Of a stretch of DNA of 64,000 bases, positions 13,895-20,359 are shown in pieces. Numbering within the stretch: the stretch's first letter is position 1; the number at the start of each line of letters is the position of its first letter. The stretch lies in sequence record NC_054930.1. One strand, 5' to 3'. This DNA comes from Escherichia phage PP01. The position numbers and the translations under genes were made by a program. A model generated the notes under the pieces. The model was not told the DNA's origin, did no database searches, and was given only the letters and a program-made list of their open reading frames with translations.

Positions 13895-14215
13895 TTATAG
13901 CGTAATCCATTCTCGTATTGTCTGAGTTACTACGCGTTCACGAGGCTCGACTAGTTCAACAGTTGGAACTGCATAATACCAGTCAGAATGGTAAGAACCT
14001 GAGCGAGATTCATTTACGGAAACATGTACATTATGTTTCGGACTAAAATAAACGCACTGCCGATATTGGCATTTGCCATCTTGTACCCAATCTTCTATTT
14101 CGACAGGTTTAAGATAATCCGAAAAATCGAAATCATAATTTTCTGAAAATGCATCATGGTCTTCGATGATTTCACTCAGAACTGCATCAACATCTAATTT
14201 ATTTTCAATAGTCAT
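13895..14215 (-). CDS. Hypothetical protein, 106 aa
   Basis: ORF track. Confidence 0.5.
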   Translation of the reverse strand: MTIENKLDVDAVLSEIIEDHDAFSENYDFDFSDYLKPVEIEDWVQDGKCQYRQCVYFSPKHNVHVSVNESRSGSYHSDWYYAVPTVELVEPRERVVTQTIREWITL

Positions 14216-14226
14216 TTGTCACCACT

Positions 14227-14436
14227 TTAATTTCGCAATTTATTAAGTTCTTCATAATCAATCCAGGATTCTAATCCTGATGGCAAATCAGATTCAATTT
14301 CCCAAAGAAGCTCTTCAATTTTCTGAAGACGATCTAATTCTTCGGCAGGAATAGTAACCATTGACGGAGTTCTTGATACACTAATATCGTAAATCATATT
14401 TACCCCAGTTTGACCATGCAATCGCCATATTTCCAT
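14227..14436 (-). CDS. Hypothetical protein, 69 aa
   Basis: ORF track. Confidence 0.45.
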   Translation of the reverse strand: MEIWRLHGQTGVNMIYDISVSRTPSMVTIPAEELDRLQKIEELLWEIESDLPSGLESWIDYEELNKLRN

Positions 14437-14615
14437 TTAGAAATAGACTTTTCACCGTTAGAATAATAAACTTCGAGTTTAGCACGATTATTTTTAATTT
14501 GAATAACCTTTGCTGTCATCAAAGTTCCATACCCGTAATAAACTGCAACCTCATCACCTACATATACCGCGCTTCCGCGGTAGTCATGGATATAATCAGT
14601 TCCTTCGAGCATCAT
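14400..14615 (-). CDS. Hypothetical small protein, 71 aa
   Basis: ORF track. Confidence 0.45.
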   Translation of the reverse strand: MMLEGTDYIHDYRGSAVYVGDEVAVYYGYGTLMTAKVIQIKNNRAKLEVYYSNGEKSISKWKYGDCMVKLG

Positions 14616-14876: not shown

Positions 14877-15119
14877 TTATTCCTTAATTCCTAGTACTTG
14901 TTTAAAAGTCTCGTCGTAATCAAGACTTTGACCTGTTTGTTCTTTATGTTTGTATATAATATCACTTACTTCTGATAGCATATTTTTATATGAACGAGTT
15001 AAAGCAGATTTAAGCACGCTATATCTATCAGGAAATTTACCGTGTTCATTATAATACGCTATTGCTAATTCACGGACTGCCTTTTCAGCAGTCTCCATAT
15101 ATTCTTTACGCTTTGTCAT
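14877..15119 (-). CDS. Hypothetical protein, 80 aa
   Basis: ORF track. Confidence 0.5.
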
Positions 15120-15402
15120 TTTCTTCTCGGTTAAATCGGTGTTTGCAATGACGGCATTTATAACGAAGATTACTAGTCTGCCAATGAACTAATTGTACCT
15201 GTTCGGTACCACATTCAGGACAATTAGGAACGTTTTTAGAAGCCCTTTCGCGACGTTCAACCATAGCCATAATGGCATCCCAAGCTGGAGGTTTAAAATC
15301 TAAATCGTCAGTAACTAGCAGTCCTTTATCAAACCCAGCGCATGGAGTCCATTCAGGAAAATCTGAAGCTTCGGCAATATCTTCTAATAAACGCTTTTTC
15401 AT
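15106..15402 (-). CDS. Zinc-ribbon protein, 98 aa
   Basis: CPECG...CRHCKH four-Cys ribbon. Confidence 0.5.
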
Positions 15403-16325
15403 TTCAGTACCTCAATAGCATCACGTAAACCATTTGCTTTGGCGGTTAAAGCCTTAATAACTTTAGTATGCTCTTCAATCTGTTTTTCAACTTCAATCAA
15501 ACGAGCACTGAGATATTCGCGTTCTTCTTTCATAGTATCATTCCCATGATTAGGCTTTGGCGTAGGTTTAAATTTACTAGGGTCCTTTAACTTAATAACA
15601 ACTTTAGTTTCAAACAGTGAAAGACCATAATTCGTATTATCATCAAAGGATTCAACTACGTCCATTTTAGACAATAACGTGCGAAGATTATAAGTCAAAG
15701 AACGAATCGTTTTATTATGTTTATTAGCTTCACATGGTTTCATATATGGAAGATTTTTATATATTTCATGTGGAGCACAAACAATAATTGACAATTCAAA
15801 TGGTCCATTCTGTGATGATGGAATGAATTTAGCCGTAACCCAATCTTTTACATTTACATTAATAGTACGGTCATCGCCATGACAAAACAGTCTACGAGAA
15901 TGCTTAAAAAGCATATTCACATTATTATTAAATTCATGTGAAAACTCACTAGCAAATTTTTCTTTACTATTTTTAGAAAACCATTCTTCTAAATAAGTTC
16001 TTTTCACGTCATTAATAATATTAAATGTAACAACATTAGCATTTGATACATTAGTCTCAATGTAGCTTGGATACATAAATTTTTTAACATTATTAACAGC
16101 TATCACAGAAGATAGTAATCGGGAACGTTTGAACCACTCTAGCAAAGAACCAAGAGAATGTGAATACGCATTTTGTGTATCTTTACAAATATGGTTTTCC
16201 CATCCAATATAGTCTAAAAAATCACGAAGAATATTATTGATTACTGCTCTATGTCCTATCTGATAATTACGATGTTTAGTAATAAGACTGTCAAAATAAT
16301 CAATATAATGTTTACGAGTTTTCAT
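15399..16325 (-). CDS. Hypothetical protein, 308 aa, with C-terminal coiled coil (array member 1)
   Basis: ORF track; Pro/Lys linker (KFKPTPKPN) then heptad-rich C-terminus ([31 protein letters not shown]). Confidence 0.6.
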   Translation of the reverse strand: MKTRKHYIDYFDSLITKHRNYQIGHRAVINNILRDFLDYIGWENHICKDTQNAYSHSLGSLLEWFKRSRLLSSVIAVNNVKKFMYPSYIETNVSNANVVTFNIINDVKRTYLEEWFSKNSKEKFASEFSHEFNNNVNMLFKHSRRLFCHGDDRTINVNVKDWVTAKFIPSSQNGPFELSIIVCAPHEIYKNLPYMKPCEANKHNKTIRSLTYNLRTLLSKMDVVESFDDNTNYGLSLFETKVVIKLKDPSKFKPTPKPNHGNDTMKEEREYLSARLIEVEKQIEEHTKVIKALTAKANGLRDAIEVLK

Positions 16326-16377
16326 GTTCTTCTCACTTGGTTAATGATTTATACTCCGAGCCATCCTTGGCTTTAAA

Positions 16378-17379
16378 TTACTTAATTAACTGTAAAGCTT
16401 GTTCCAAACGATCAAGGCGATTAACAGATTCTTCCCAAATCCTTTTAGCCTTCTCATATTCTTTCTGCGCTTTATTAGAAATTTCTAGAACTTCTTTATA
16501 AGCTTTTTCTAGTGCAATAACTTCTGGACGAATTTCTATCGGTTCAGGCGAATCGTCAAGACATTCCATTAGTTCTTCAAGGGTAGTTTCTTCTTTAGGA
16601 GTATTCACAATTTCATCACATTTTTGTTGGTAAATTTCTTTATCAGTCGGTGAGTACGTACGTTTCACTTCACGAAGGCTAATTATAATTTTATATCCTT
16701 CCCAACCACACATATTTTTGAAAGGATATGTATGAATACTTTTTACGGTTTCCATACAGCCCAAAGCCGCCTCTAATTGATAAGTTATAGTGCTAGCAAT
16801 TGAGAAAAATTTATTAATATTCTTTTGGTTAGCGTTTGGTGTAAAAAATCCATAATTCACAAAAATAGCTACTTTATTTTTATCAAGCTCATATTCTTTT
16901 ACGATAATCATATCAGAAGCCAAAGGATGAATTTGACGATAATCGCCATAACATAATTTAGAAGCTGATTTTAGAATCTGTCCTTTGAAAAGCCTGAAAT
17001 TACTAATCCAACGACGAGTAAAAATATTCTCAGGGTCTTCTTTATTATTAAGATGATAAGAATTAACATCACCGAACCAATTATATCCTACTACATCTTT
17101 AGTTCGTTTAATTTCTTTCCCAAATTTACCAAGAATATCTCTGTTGACTAAGTATGAAAGAAGACGAGACCCTTTAAAGGTTTTCTTAATGTCATCTTTA
17201 TCTGTACGACTAGAAATTTCACGAACTTCGTGAATAAATCTGCTGGAAGAAACAATGCTTACATCAATATTATTGAGCCATTGATTGATAATAGAAAGAA
17301 CACTATTCTGACTAGACATAGGTTTAACTTTATCATCAATAACGCTATTGAATGATTTGATATATTCGTTACGAGTCAT
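16378..17379 (-). CDS. Hypothetical protein, ~333 aa, with C-terminal coiled coil (array member 2)
   Basis: ORF track 16378..17430; start moved to MTRNEYIK, which has a GGAG ribosome-binding site and lies downstream of the early promoter at ~17408-17460. Confidence 0.6.
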   Translation of the reverse strand: MTRNEYIKSFNSVIDDKVKPMSSQNSVLSIINQWLNNIDVSIVSSSRFIHEVREISSRTDKDDIKKTFKGSRLLSYLVNRDILGKFGKEIKRTKDVVGYNWFGDVNSYHLNNKEDPENIFTRRWISNFRLFKGQILKSASKLCYGDYRQIHPLASDMIIVKEYELDKNKVAIFVNYGFFTPNANQKNINKFFSIASTITYQLEAALGCMETVKSIHTYPFKNMCGWEGYKIIISLREVKRTYSPTDKEIYQQKCDEIVNTPKEETTLEELMECLDDSPEPIEIRPEVIALEKAYKEVLEISNKAQKEYEKAKRIWEESVNRLDRLEQALQLIK

Positions 17380-17407
17380 ATTAATCTCCTCAGTAGAAAG
17401 TAAGAAC

Positions 17408-17460
17408 ATTATACCACATCCTTGTGGCAAAGTAAACTAGTTTAGTGCATTTAGTGCATT
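17408..17460 (-). promoter_or_regulatory. T4-type early promoter
   Basis: Plus strand attataccac...gtaaactagtttagtg (reverse complement of -10 / GTTTAC / UP pattern). Confidence 0.5.
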
Positions 17461-18327
17461 GTTCAGTTTAGAACGTTGCTTCGTGAGATTTTTGACTTTT
17501 TCTTGAGCTTTTTCTAGCATCTTTTCAGCTTCTAGCACTTCATTAGTTGCTTTAACGAGTTCATCATCTACTGCCTTGATAGACTTCTCAATCGCATCGG
17601 CATGCCATTTTTCAACAGGTTTAAGACTCGGATTTTCAACAGGAAGAAAATTCACTTTATTGAATTTCCATGCATCCTTATTACCTGAACTATACATCCA
17701 AAATTTAGGATCGTTTGATGAGTAATTGGATAAATTTAAATTTAAGTTATCTTGCACTTCTTGCTTTTTCTCTTGCGTGACTTCGTCCTTTCTCAAAAAT
17801 TCATATTTAAATGAAACGATCATATCAAGTTCATATGTTGTTGTGTCTAATTTAAATCGTTCGAAATGTTGTGAAATCTTAGACTGAACAGCAGCAACAA
17901 CATCCATATACTTAAATGCTTCTGTCAACTGCGATTTAAGACATTCGCAAATTGAAAGAGAATTTTTTGTATTAGGTTTAAAGCTAATTCGTGCAGTTCT
18001 GTTATTTTCTTTTAATGGTCTTACTTCCATCTGAAGAGTATAACCGTCAAATTTCAGGTTCTTTAAGTTAATGTCAGAACCTTTTAATCGACTAGCCGTC
18101 GACAAAATTTGCTTTAATTGTCTACGGAACAGAGCAATAAATCTCCATTCAATACGATAATGATTTGGATTGAAAAATCCAGATGATAAATCGACCTTAC
18201 TTTGACCAACGCCTTGAACAAATAGAGGATTTTTATAATCAATAGTTTTACAGAAATCGGTGAGTTGCTCACGAGCAGTCATTTGTGTAATATACCCCCG
18301 CTTTACTAAAATGACGTAACCATTCAC
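17437..18327 (-). CDS. Hypothetical protein, ~296 aa, with C-terminal coiled coil (array member 3); start uncertain
   Basis: ORF track; C-terminus EVLEAEKMLEKAQEKVKNLTKQRSKLNNALNALN. Confidence 0.55.
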   Translation of the reverse strand: MNGYVILVKRGYITQMTAREQLTDFCKTIDYKNPLFVQGVGQSKVDLSSGFFNPNHYRIEWRFIALFRRQLKQILSTASRLKGSDINLKNLKFDGYTLQMEVRPLKENNRTARISFKPNTKNSLSICECLKSQLTEAFKYMDVVAAVQSKISQHFERFKLDTTTYELDMIVSFKYEFLRKDEVTQEKKQEVQDNLNLNLSNYSSNDPKFWMYSSGNKDAWKFNKVNFLPVENPSLKPVEKWHADAIEKSIKAVDDELVKATNEVLEAEKMLEKAQEKVKNLTKQRSKLNNALNALN

Positions 18328-18463
18328 TGCTATTCATATATTTAAAGTGAATATCACGATTAACTTTATCAGGGTCTAAATTATTTTGGCACAAAAATGT
18401 CATAACATCACGAGTATAGCTGGCATTACGAACCATATCTTCAATTTGAGAACGAGTTTTCAT
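18269..18463 (-). CDS. Hypothetical protein, 64 aa
   Basis: ORF track; overlaps the 5' end of the downstream ORF. Confidence 0.35.
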   Translation of the reverse strand: MKTRSQIEDMVRNASYTRDVMTFLCQNNLDPDKVNRDIHFKYMNSSEWLRHFSKAGVYYTNDCS

Positions 18464-18471
18464 GGTGTTCC

Positions 18472-19305
18472 TTAAGATTTAAGTAAATCAACAATTTTAA
18501 TTAACTTTTCACGCTCAGATTTAGCTTTACTACTCAATCCAGATAGTCTGAAAATTTCATCGTCATATTGTTGAATAGAAATATTCAGCTCTTCAATCTG
18601 CTTATTAAAATAATCAATTTGTTCAGAATGTTTTTCGTTACTACGAACTGGTACAGGTTTTGTAGGCAATTTAGTTGAACTGGATTCATCCGGGCGATAA
18701 ATTAAAATACAACTTGAACCAATAGGGCATTTTGCACCAGATGAATATTCTAATGTTCCAGCTTCTTTTAAAACTTCAAAAGCTAAACAGAGATGATGCC
18801 CCATATTAACATAATCTGTAGAGTGAGCTCTGATGTAATAATCATCGCCACGAATACTAAATTTAAAGCATTTAAGGTCTTCTGTATTATTGGTCTTAAA
18901 AATCATTTGTTTATCTAGACCTTTAGCTAATCGAGCGCCTAATGCTAATAATCGGCGTTGATTTTCCCACAAATCCGCAATCATTTGATCGAATGATAAT
19001 TTTGGCATCAGTCGACCATAAAGGTCATATCCTTTATTATAATTACGAAGAATTTCACTCGCATTAATACGAGACAACGCTCCAATTTTATTAAGGGCTT
19101 TCATAATACGATTAGATAAACTCATTCCAGACCCGTTTGTTCGCTGTAAATGTTTTTCTAATCCAAATCCAATATCAACTTTAAACTTATCTAAAATTTC
19201 TGCATGAACATCTCTGTCGATAACATTCAAATCCAAAGTTGAGTTAAATCTATGAAAAAATTTATCTGGCTCTGCACTGCGAAATACAGTCCATTCATTC
19301 ATCAT
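18472..19305 (-). CDS. Hypothetical protein, 277 aa, with C-terminal coiled coil (array member 4)
   Basis: ORF track; linker LPTKPVPV then heptad-rich C-terminus. Confidence 0.6.
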   Translation of the reverse strand: MMNEWTVFRSAEPDKFFHRFNSTLDLNVIDRDVHAEILDKFKVDIGFGLEKHLQRTNGSGMSLSNRIMKALNKIGALSRINASEILRNYNKGYDLYGRLMPKLSFDQMIADLWENQRRLLALGARLAKGLDKQMIFKTNNTEDLKCFKFSIRGDDYYIRAHSTDYVNMGHHLCLAFEVLKEAGTLEYSSGAKCPIGSSCILIYRPDESSSTKLPTKPVPVRSNEKHSEQIDYFNKQIEELNISIQQYDDEIFRLSGLSSKAKSEREKLIKIVDLLKS

Positions 19306-19368
19306 TTTTTATTAACTAAAGATTTAATTACTGCATTGACATTATTAATTACTACTGACATATTTTCC

Positions 19369-19831: not shown

Positions 19832-20359
19832 TTATGCGAGTGCCGTCTTTAACCGTTCTTCAAACTTCCGAAGAGTATTTTGGCGTTCAGCTCTTTGCTT
19901 TTTGTAAGTTTCAATACGCTCTGAAATGAGAGTGTATCGTTCATTTACTGATTCTTTCATAAAATCAGGAATTTCACGAGAAGCTTTAATCTCGTCAAAT
20001 TTATCAATAACAGCTTGCTCTTCAGCAATTAAGTTATCATACATTAAAATATCTTTCTTGATGAACTCAATATCTTCTTGAGTTACACGAGATAATTTAG
20101 ATGCTTTATCCTTTTTGTACTGTTCGTTAGTATCACGAGACCAATGTAATGTACGATTTTTATTCGTATTCTTGTAAATTTCTACAATACCAATCTCATC
20201 AATAATAACGATCCAATTCCAGCGGGATTTGTAAATTTGTCCTCCATCAACAGCGATTTCACCTCCGATTGAGATGTCGTTAAAGAACTTGCTTTGTGCT
20301 TCAGATTTAAATTTACCATCGTTGTAATTTACTAAGTTGAAAATATCTTTAGCGTTCAT
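19832..20359 (-). CDS. Hypothetical protein, 175 aa
   Basis: ORF track; GGAGG ribosome-binding site; downstream of early promoter. Confidence 0.6.
   Translation of the reverse strand: MNAKDIFNLVNYNDGKFKSEAQSKFFNDISIGGEIAVDGGQIYKSRWNWIVIIDEIGIVEIYKNTNKNRTLHWSRDTNEQYKKDKASKLSRVTQEDIEFIKKDILMYDNLIAEEQAVIDKFDEIKASREIPDFMKESVNERYTLISERIETYKKQRAERQNTLRKFEERLKTALA

Follow-up and report, generated by a model that had tools for sequence, protein, structure and literature searches.

The nrdC.3-nrdC.6 array of Escherichia phage PP01: four T4 genes as one diverged paralog family with a conserved C-terminal heptad tail

Within about 4 kb of the early region of the reference lytic phage T4, a function is known only for nrdC.5, which acts against the host defence protein Dsr1 by genetic evidence. 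The same region in Escherichia phage PP01 raises the question of what this row of genes does, and whether its members belong together. In the 64,000-nucleotide stretch of PP01 that was analysed (NC_054930.1; the whole stretch is called the window here), the row occupies positions 15399-19361 and, as judged from its sequence, is the tandem array of T4 genes nrdC.3, nrdC.4, nrdC.5 and nrdC.6, all on the minus strand. The strand is the same for every part of the array located below, and for nrdC.8. The new result is that these four known T4 genes are united in one paralog family with a conserved heptad tail. Should the four prove to be a single family of fixed architecture, three further candidates for counter-defence become open to direct testing.

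Identity and relatedness of the four proteins

The 3.9-kb array region shares 97.9% DNA identity with Shigella phage vb_GEC_SH_GT (SH_GT) and has matches in 501 phage records, almost all from Tequatrovirus; the window comes from a member of this genus, a T4-like phage. On the upstream side are gene 49 (endonuclease VII), pin and nrdC, a glutaredoxin gene, and on the downstream side nrdC.10 and nrdC.11. An earlier note on this DNA, which could assign none of the genes to a named T4 gene, correctly described four consecutive minus-strand genes; their open reading frames (ORFs) are found here to span 15399-19361. All four can now be named. The GenBank labels under the matches read nrdC.3 in RB51, nrdC.5 in AR1, KMB40 and slur03, and nrdC.6 in JS10 and VR7, and the gene between nrdC.3 and nrdC.5 is nrdC.4 because gene order leaves that slot. 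Protein identity to T4 is 96.4% for nrdC.3, 90.1% for nrdC.4, 94.4% for nrdC.5 (with its frameshift repaired) and 97.3% for nrdC.6. Two of the lengths given in the earlier note, ~296 and 277 amino acids (aa), turn out to be those of frameshift-damaged ORFs of nrdC.5 (intact 342 aa) and nrdC.6 (intact 296 aa).

Each gene belongs to an existing protein family over its full length. Both nrdC.3 (15399..16325; 308 aa, intact, identified by its ORF, phrog_1435, T4 identity and the RB51 annotation) and its paralog nrdC.4 (16378..17379; 333 aa, intact, identified by phrog_1435, PF26897, hhalign and AlphaFold2) fall into the family phrog_1435/PF26897. The nrdC.3 protein matches phrog_1435 with E 1.6e-100 (residues 2-308 on profile positions 1-334) and nrdC.4 with E 4.1e-165 (residues 1-333 on 1-334), and the precomputed PF26897 assignment is present on all nrdC.4 homologs. 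The nrdC.5 gene (17437..18463; 340-342 aa where intact in relatives) was recognised by its DUF7235 match, by alignment to SH_GT and by T4 identity. Its match to DUF7235 (PF23882, phrog_2351; Pfam gathering score 30 bits) is full-length and above the gathering score, spread over two frames: positions 1-58 lie in an N-terminal ORF of 64 aa (18269-18463; 56.5 bits) and positions 54-307 in a downstream ORF of 296 aa with a GTG start (17437-18327; 344.9 bits). For nrdC.6 (18472..19361; 296 aa where intact in relatives; phrog_2257, precomputed PF26899 and alignment), the phrog_2257 match has E 1.3e-142 and places residues 2-277 on positions 20-303 of 303; the first ~19 profile positions are unmatched because of a deletion in an A run, described below. 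The local Pfam search returned DUF7235 for nrdC.5 and no family for nrdC.3, nrdC.4 or nrdC.6.

The N-terminal heads had been taken in the earlier note to be unrelated to one another. Profile-profile comparison, bridging proteins, cross-matches among PHROGs and AlphaFold/Foldseek point instead to one paralog family. Direct pairwise BLAST among the four proteins detects the nrdC.3-nrdC.4 pair alone (E 5e-5). Profile comparison by hhalign, which gave weaker results with the first, shallow alignments, was made with profiles enlarged by orthologs from 14 related loci. In this comparison, hhalign gives 97.6% (E 3.9e-12) for nrdC.3 and nrdC.4, both of phrog_1435, and 80% (E 1.4e-5) for nrdC.4 and nrdC.5, collinear across almost the whole length. 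For a merged nrdC.3+4+5 profile and nrdC.6 it gives 51-74% (E 3e-5 to 2e-4) over a core of ~70 columns. Furthermore, two motifs, FKxSRLLSxLxxRxxLxxF and xILxxAxRLxxGxD, occupy corresponding positions in the alignments of all four families; for a third, ALxxMDxVE, this holds in nrdC.3 to nrdC.5, and nrdC.6 has only a looser counterpart.

Proteins that stand between the families strengthen these alignments. A search of 1.84 billion (1.84e9) representative proteins with the nrdC.3+4+5 profile returned 19 proteins at E<=1e-3; it did not pull in nrdC.6 directly, and it supplied the bridging proteins P0239 and P0240. In Klebsiella phage F48, gp057 (315 aa, in the syntenic position) has a head like that of nrdC.4 and a tail like that of nrdC.5. 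Its score against the merged hidden Markov model (HMM) is 60 bits; the match to phrog_1435 is full-length (1.7e-9), and that to phrog_2351 lies in the tail (1.6e-10). This protein and a 335-aa protein of Enterobacter phage IME523 are both in phrog_26858, and the latter matches phrog_2257, the nrdC.6 family (7e-6, residues 148-333), as well as phrog_2351. The members of phrog_26858 thus tie PHROGs 1435, 2351 and 2257 together, and the heads are homologous by profile comparison.

Predicted structures agree with this grouping. AlphaFold2 was run on monomers of nrdC.4 and of P0122, an intact nrdC.6 ortholog, with mean predicted local distance difference test (pLDDT) scores of 84.4 and 76.4, respectively. 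In both models the elements follow the same order: N-terminal helices, two helix pairs, a beta-hairpin, a long helix, a second beta-hairpin, a linker and a tail helix. The two helix pairs carry the FKxSRLLS... and xILxxAxRL... motifs. Foldseek searches of BFVD with the two models have seven matches in common. All are uncharacterised proteins of 304-370 aa from Straboviridae, namely from phages IME523, PM2, Mineola, fHyAci03, Acj61, CBH8 and PS2. Five of the seven give E-values of 1e-3 to 5e-8 with both models, at template modelling (TM) scores of 0.40-0.48; the proteins of Serratia phages CBH8 and PS2 give 8e-5 and 1e-4 with the nrdC.4 model and 4e-3 and 2e-3 with the nrdC.6 model. The predicted nrdC.4 and nrdC.6 models thus share the same fold. 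A weak likeness of this predicted fold to tail terminator or tail completion proteins (lambda gpU-like fold) was also seen, and sequence searches of PDB gave only spurious matches to designed helical repeats. Separately, two BFVD entries of Acinetobacter phage Acj61, E5E4A1 and E5E4A2 (330 and 304 aa), have consecutive accessions and both match the nrdC.4 model, which suggests an independent tandem duplication in Acinetobacter T4-like phages.

Homology of nrdC.3-nrdC.6 as diverged, whole-length paralogs is well supported by these results. The idea of variable heads joined to a shared helix is thereby half retained: the shared tail is real, and the heads belong to paralogs that are related along their whole length.

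The C-terminal heptad tails

Each of the four proteins had been described as ending in a heptad-rich helix behind a Pro-containing linker, and heptad statistics agree with this, as do the AlphaFold2 models of nrdC.4 and nrdC.6. The heptad score is a measure of our own, distinct from COILS and MARCOIL, by which the C-termini of 89 non-overlapping window ORFs were ranked. The top four places go to nrdC.5, nrdC.8, nrdC.3 and nrdC.4, in that order, and nrdC.6 is sixth, such that five of the six best scores lie within 5 kb. In each of the four array proteins, the C-terminal 45-55 residues are the sole segment above threshold and keep a single register; their a/d positions are 0.85-0.94 hydrophobic, at z = 3.9-6.4 against composition-preserving shuffles. 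The periodicity extends over at least four heptads with a continuous helix, predicted at 48 residues in nrdC.4.

The layout in nrdC.3 is a head at about aa 1-247, a Pro/Lys linker at about 248-262 and a tail at aa 263-308 (15402..15539; heptad score 0.44, rank 3 of 89, z = 3.9) that ends LRDAIEVLK. In nrdC.4 a linker predicted to be disordered (aa 270-284, 16528-16572; pLDDT <50 at 270-282) precedes a single predicted tail helix at aa 285-332 (16381..16527; z = 4.0), as read from AlphaFold2 secondary structure and pLDDT. The last 55 aa of nrdC.5 (17440..17604), ending LNNALNALN, have the highest score of all (0.49, rank 1 of 89, z = 6.4). The last 51 aa of nrdC.6 (18475..18627; z = 5.1) are predicted by AlphaFold2 as two helices joined by LSGLS in one heptad register; in the model of its ortholog, disorder at 228-241 is followed by helices at 246-272 and 278-295.

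In three of the four families the tails are conserved beyond what is seen in the heads. Among distant orthologs of nrdC.3, nrdC.4 and nrdC.6, tail identity is 63-77% and head identity 41-60%. The nrdC.4 tail segment WEESTNRLDRLEQALELLK is nearly invariant among orthologs that are only 40-55% identical overall, and the nrdC.6 family likewise has invariant tail residues. A terminal motif, R-x-K-L-x-x-A-[ILV]-x-x-L-K, is common to all four families and to relatives in other genera. The stricter pattern L..[AVI][ILV]..L[KN] is matched by three of the four window tails and by no other of the 527 six-frame ORFs; the window copy of nrdC.4, which ends LQLIK with Ile for Leu, narrowly misses it, and its orthologs end LELLK. 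Matches to coiled-coil Pfam families are weak only. The conservation of each tail is specific to its paralog and includes surface residues, which argues for a specific interface, by self-association or with a partner, and not for a generic zipper. The last ~12 residues, being common, could leave room for a shared partner or for mixed oligomers.

Tails can also move between heads, as P0233 indicates. This protein of 173 aa (L019 120-641, on an ENA contig of 803 bp) joins a 120-aa head that is unmatched in any fetched locus to an exact T4-type nrdC.5 tail.

A further strong C-terminal heptad helix (z = 4.3) is found in nrdC.8 (175 aa, 19832-20359), the head of which falls in another family, phrog_2274. 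This gene was considered as a fifth member and set aside: the merged nrdC.3+4+5 HMM matches its C-terminal half weakly (E 0.017, 8.7 bits) and hhalign gives P 0.09. The gene may be a distant relative in truncated form, or the likeness may be fortuitous.

Gene damage, turnover and surroundings of the array

In the window, nrdC.5 and nrdC.6 are both disrupted at homopolymers. A G5 run at 18295-18299 holds one G more than the SH_GT alignment predicts, and the resulting +1 frameshift breaks the nrdC.5 reading frame at about codon 55. In nrdC.6, an A6 run at 19305-19310 (A7 in relatives) lacks one A, which cuts off the N-terminus. By sequence and alignment, the true start is at 19361, with a GAGG ribosome-binding site, and now opens a 19-codon ORF (19302-19361) that ends out of frame at a TGA; the ORF as called (18472-19305, 277 aa) begins at an overlapping ATG and is without the first 19 codons. 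Few other isolated 1-nucleotide insertions or deletions were seen in a 50-kb comparison with SH_GT, and most of these were intergenic. In this phage the two genes may be inactive, or the frameshifts may be homopolymer sequencing errors; PP01 in particular may have lost nrdC.5 function. In Shigella phage Sf25, the nrdC.6 ortholog (P0121, 378 aa; 97% identity, 88% query cover) is ~80 aa longer than usual, and its extra length may be a fusion or a mis-called start.

The nrdC.3-nrdC.6 family is confined to T4-like phages (Straboviridae), with the 19 matches among 1.84 billion proteins noted above. Relatives found by tblastn come from T4-like phages of Escherichia, Shigella, Klebsiella, Enterobacter, Edwardsiella, Kosakonia and Citrobacter. 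Related loci matched to Gaprivervirus VR20, VR25 and VR26 and to Dhakavirus IME281 (L007-L016) carry nrdC.6, an nrdC.5-like gene and nrdC.4, without nrdC.3. Within the stretch searched, F48 (Marfavirus) has one recognisable member, gp057, and the one neighbour tested, gp053, is unrelated; at the IME523 locus (Kanagawavirus) the 335-aa protein and one neighbour were examined.

The family changes more quickly than the genes around it, and divergent alleles, chimeras and pseudogenes occur. Over seven Tequatrovirus loci, the median ratio of nonsynonymous to synonymous substitution rates (dN/dS) is 0.27 for nrdC.3, 0.19 for nrdC.4, 0.18 for nrdC.5 and 0.09 for nrdC.6, and 0.01-0.07 for nrdC, gene 49, nrdC.8, nrdC.10 and nrdC.11. 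Within Tequatrovirus, nrdC.3 occurs in two allele classes, of >90% and ~60% identity. In P0056 the middle of nrdC.5 runs into the C-terminal half of nrdC.3, with the junction at a short KVN/NVN stretch common to both, and phage ACG-C40 (NC_019399.1 47512-47930) keeps only the nrdC.5 N-terminus, joined to the nrdC.3 C-terminus. The nrdC.4 gene is split into 193 and 158 aa in phage G8 (L009 9971-11003) and is a fragment in T2; its ortholog in phage 005 (L015 9941-10912) has most of the tail helix deleted and the last 11 residues kept. This paralogy and turnover explain gene variation among nearly identical T4-like phages, and therefore host-range differences, which is relevant to the choice of phages for therapy.

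Several neighbouring genes deserve mention. A 106-aa ORF at 13895-14215 (minus strand) is the homolog of gene 49.2, the product of which in T6 is reported to inhibit the OLD defence nuclease (PMC13096335). T4 has one 102-aa gene between 49.2 and nrdC; in its place PP01 has two small ORFs, of 69 and 71 aa (14227-14615), and one of the two is annotated in SH_GT as 'antitoxin from a toxin-antitoxin system'. The adjacent nrdC.2 (98 aa, 15106-15402, minus strand) has two CxxC pairs and weak zinc-ribbon Pfam matches. Its length differs from phage to phage (129 aa in L004), and by dN/dS (0.29) it ranks with the most rapidly evolving genes of the neighbourhood. The start of this gene and the stop of nrdC.3 overlap over 4 nt (ATGA), an arrangement that points to translational coupling. 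A sigma-70-like promoter match, TTTACT-17-TATAAT with an extended TG (17408..17436), lies just upstream of nrdC.4 and is a consensus match only; in a promoter and terminator scan of the region, the number of matches equalled the shuffle expectation and was no richer than in shuffled sequence.

Two annotations in related genomes call for caution. Many GenBank Tequatrovirus orthologs of nrdC.3-nrdC.6 are labelled 'thioredoxin'. This label has no support: no thioredoxin or glutaredoxin family was found among the Pfam and NCBIfam matches, and the topology that AlphaFold2 predicts for nrdC.4 and nrdC.6 is helical plus beta-hairpins. It apparently spread from the position-based nrdC.x gene names. 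In SH_GT, nrdC.10 is called 'clamp loader of DNA polymerase' and looks like an over-annotated AAA ATPase.

Proposed function, alternatives and comparison with known systems

In T4, nrdC.5 overcomes Dsr1, a SIR2 NADase defence protein, on evidence that is genetic only (PMC9391042): its expression restores plating of a T4 deletion mutant on dsr1-carrying cells (Srikant 2022, eLife, PMC9391042). A literature search found no mechanism for nrdC.5, and nothing on nrdC.3, nrdC.4 or nrdC.6 beyond passing mention. The hint in the earlier note at host defence systems fits this published case (PMC9391042); for the other three genes we infer such a role. The reading preferred here, with a rough probability of 0.6, is that the nrdC.3-nrdC.6 family encodes anti-defence (host-range) proteins, early and dispensable, with heads that diverge to serve different targets and a tail that oligomerises.

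Each member is a protein of ~300-340 aa. Its predicted parts, in order, are helices at the N-terminus, an alpha/beta sandwich (beta-hairpin, helix, beta-hairpin), a disordered Pro-rich linker and an amphipathic helix of 45-55 residues. In this proposal, the proteins would be made early in infection, and each head would directly bind and block a particular host immune protein, which for nrdC.5 would be Dsr1. Through their tails the proteins would assemble into a coiled-coil oligomer, with several heads attached by flexible Pro-rich tethers; displayed in this way, the heads might gain avidity or fit a target that is itself an oligomer. The heads would have diversified by duplication, allele replacement and recombination. 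A tentative extension regards the array as a modular anti-immunity toolkit, in which heads diversified by these three processes on a coiled-coil chassis would each neutralise a different immune sensor, Dsr1 being the first. Mixed oligomers of paralogs are conceivable here, and so are decoy heads that mimic a phage structural protein, proposed because of the weak tail-terminator-like fold.

Several points weigh against the preferred reading. Functional evidence is limited to nrdC.5 and to genetic complementation, and the putative oligomerisation of the tails is drawn from monomer models and heptad sequence. The strongly conserved surface residues of the tails suggest an interface more specific than simple self-association, and several core positions of nrdC.4 are taken by Ala, Ser, Tyr and Trp, which a canonical leucine zipper would seldom have there. 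Membership of nrdC.6 is the weakest link: its direct hhalign pairs are not significant alone (P 0.006-0.12), and merged profiles, bridging proteins and predicted structures carry it. In addition, PADLOC, NCBIfam and solved structures gave no meaningful match for the family, the dN/dS values are well below 1, and nrdC.6 (0.09) is constrained like its housekeeping neighbours.

The alternatives differ in what they make of the heads, the tails and the Dsr1 result. That four unrelated genes each end in a generic helix by chance is hardly credible. The tail similarities are low in complexity and coiled-coil Pfam families match them weakly, which speaks for chance, but the homology runs over the full protein length and already refutes this account; moreover, the clustering of five of the six top C-terminal heptad scores of 89 ORFs within 5 kb, and a strict tail pattern found in three of four window tails and in no other of 527 frames, would be hard to obtain by accident. 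A more substantial proposal is that the heads are of unrelated origin and that domain shuffling gave each of them the same helix for oligomerisation or docking, through which they reach a partner in common. Much of the tail evidence can be read in this way: the tail is the best conserved segment in three of the four families (nrdC.3, nrdC.4 and nrdC.6), the terminal motif is common to all four, P0233 couples an exact nrdC.5 tail to a foreign head of 120 aa, F48 gp057 pairs an nrdC.4-like head with an nrdC.5-like tail, and nrdC.4 of phage 005 (L015) keeps its last 11 residues despite the loss of most of the helix. However, the heads are homologous and collinear in all four families, two of them with the same predicted fold, and the tails are paralog-specific outside the last ~12 residues, with which one common docking site does not fit. 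Wholesale shuffling of this kind is thus quite improbable.

The remaining alternative questions the function and not the kinship. The proteins might not be anti-defence factors as such, and might instead act as early host-takeover or scaffold factors, for example in transcription or in nucleotide/NAD metabolism, with the Dsr1 rescue by nrdC.5 being indirect. This is considered unlikely, given that the genes are dispensable, often pseudogenised and allelically replaced, that the array region holds other anti-defence genes, and that no enzyme or DNA-binding signature was found with Pfam, PADLOC or NCBIfam.

Comparison with described systems shows what the family shares and where it departs. The window nrdC.5 is the ortholog of T4 NrdC.5 (PMC9391042), being 94.4% identical after repair and alike in position, DUF7235 and phrog_2351; it differs in that the window copy is frameshifted. 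The paralogy of nrdC.5 with nrdC.3, nrdC.4 and nrdC.6, its domain layout and its mechanism were not described in that study (PMC9391042). The families concerned, all of unknown function, are PF26897 (nrdC.3/nrdC.4), PF23882 (DUF7235; nrdC.5) and PF26899 (nrdC.6), with PHROGs 1435, 2351, 2257 and 26858, and each window gene belongs to its own family over the full length. Pfam and PHROGs keep these families separate and unannotated, whereas here they are joined in one superfamily with a common architecture.

A phage inhibitor of a SIR2-domain NADase is already known in DSAD1, which inhibits the defence protein DSR2, reportedly by binding it. The same kind of mechanism is proposed here for the NrdC.5 head, although DSAD1 comes from another phage group and its target is DSR2, not Dsr1. 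Among the T-even phages, the dmd-tifA-adfA 'anti-TA island' and gp49.2 (anti-OLD) are similar in being encoded by early, non-essential, clustered genes with fast turnover that decide host range. Those are unrelated small proteins, whereas nrdC.3-nrdC.6 are a tandem expansion of one ~300-aa family with coiled-coil tails.

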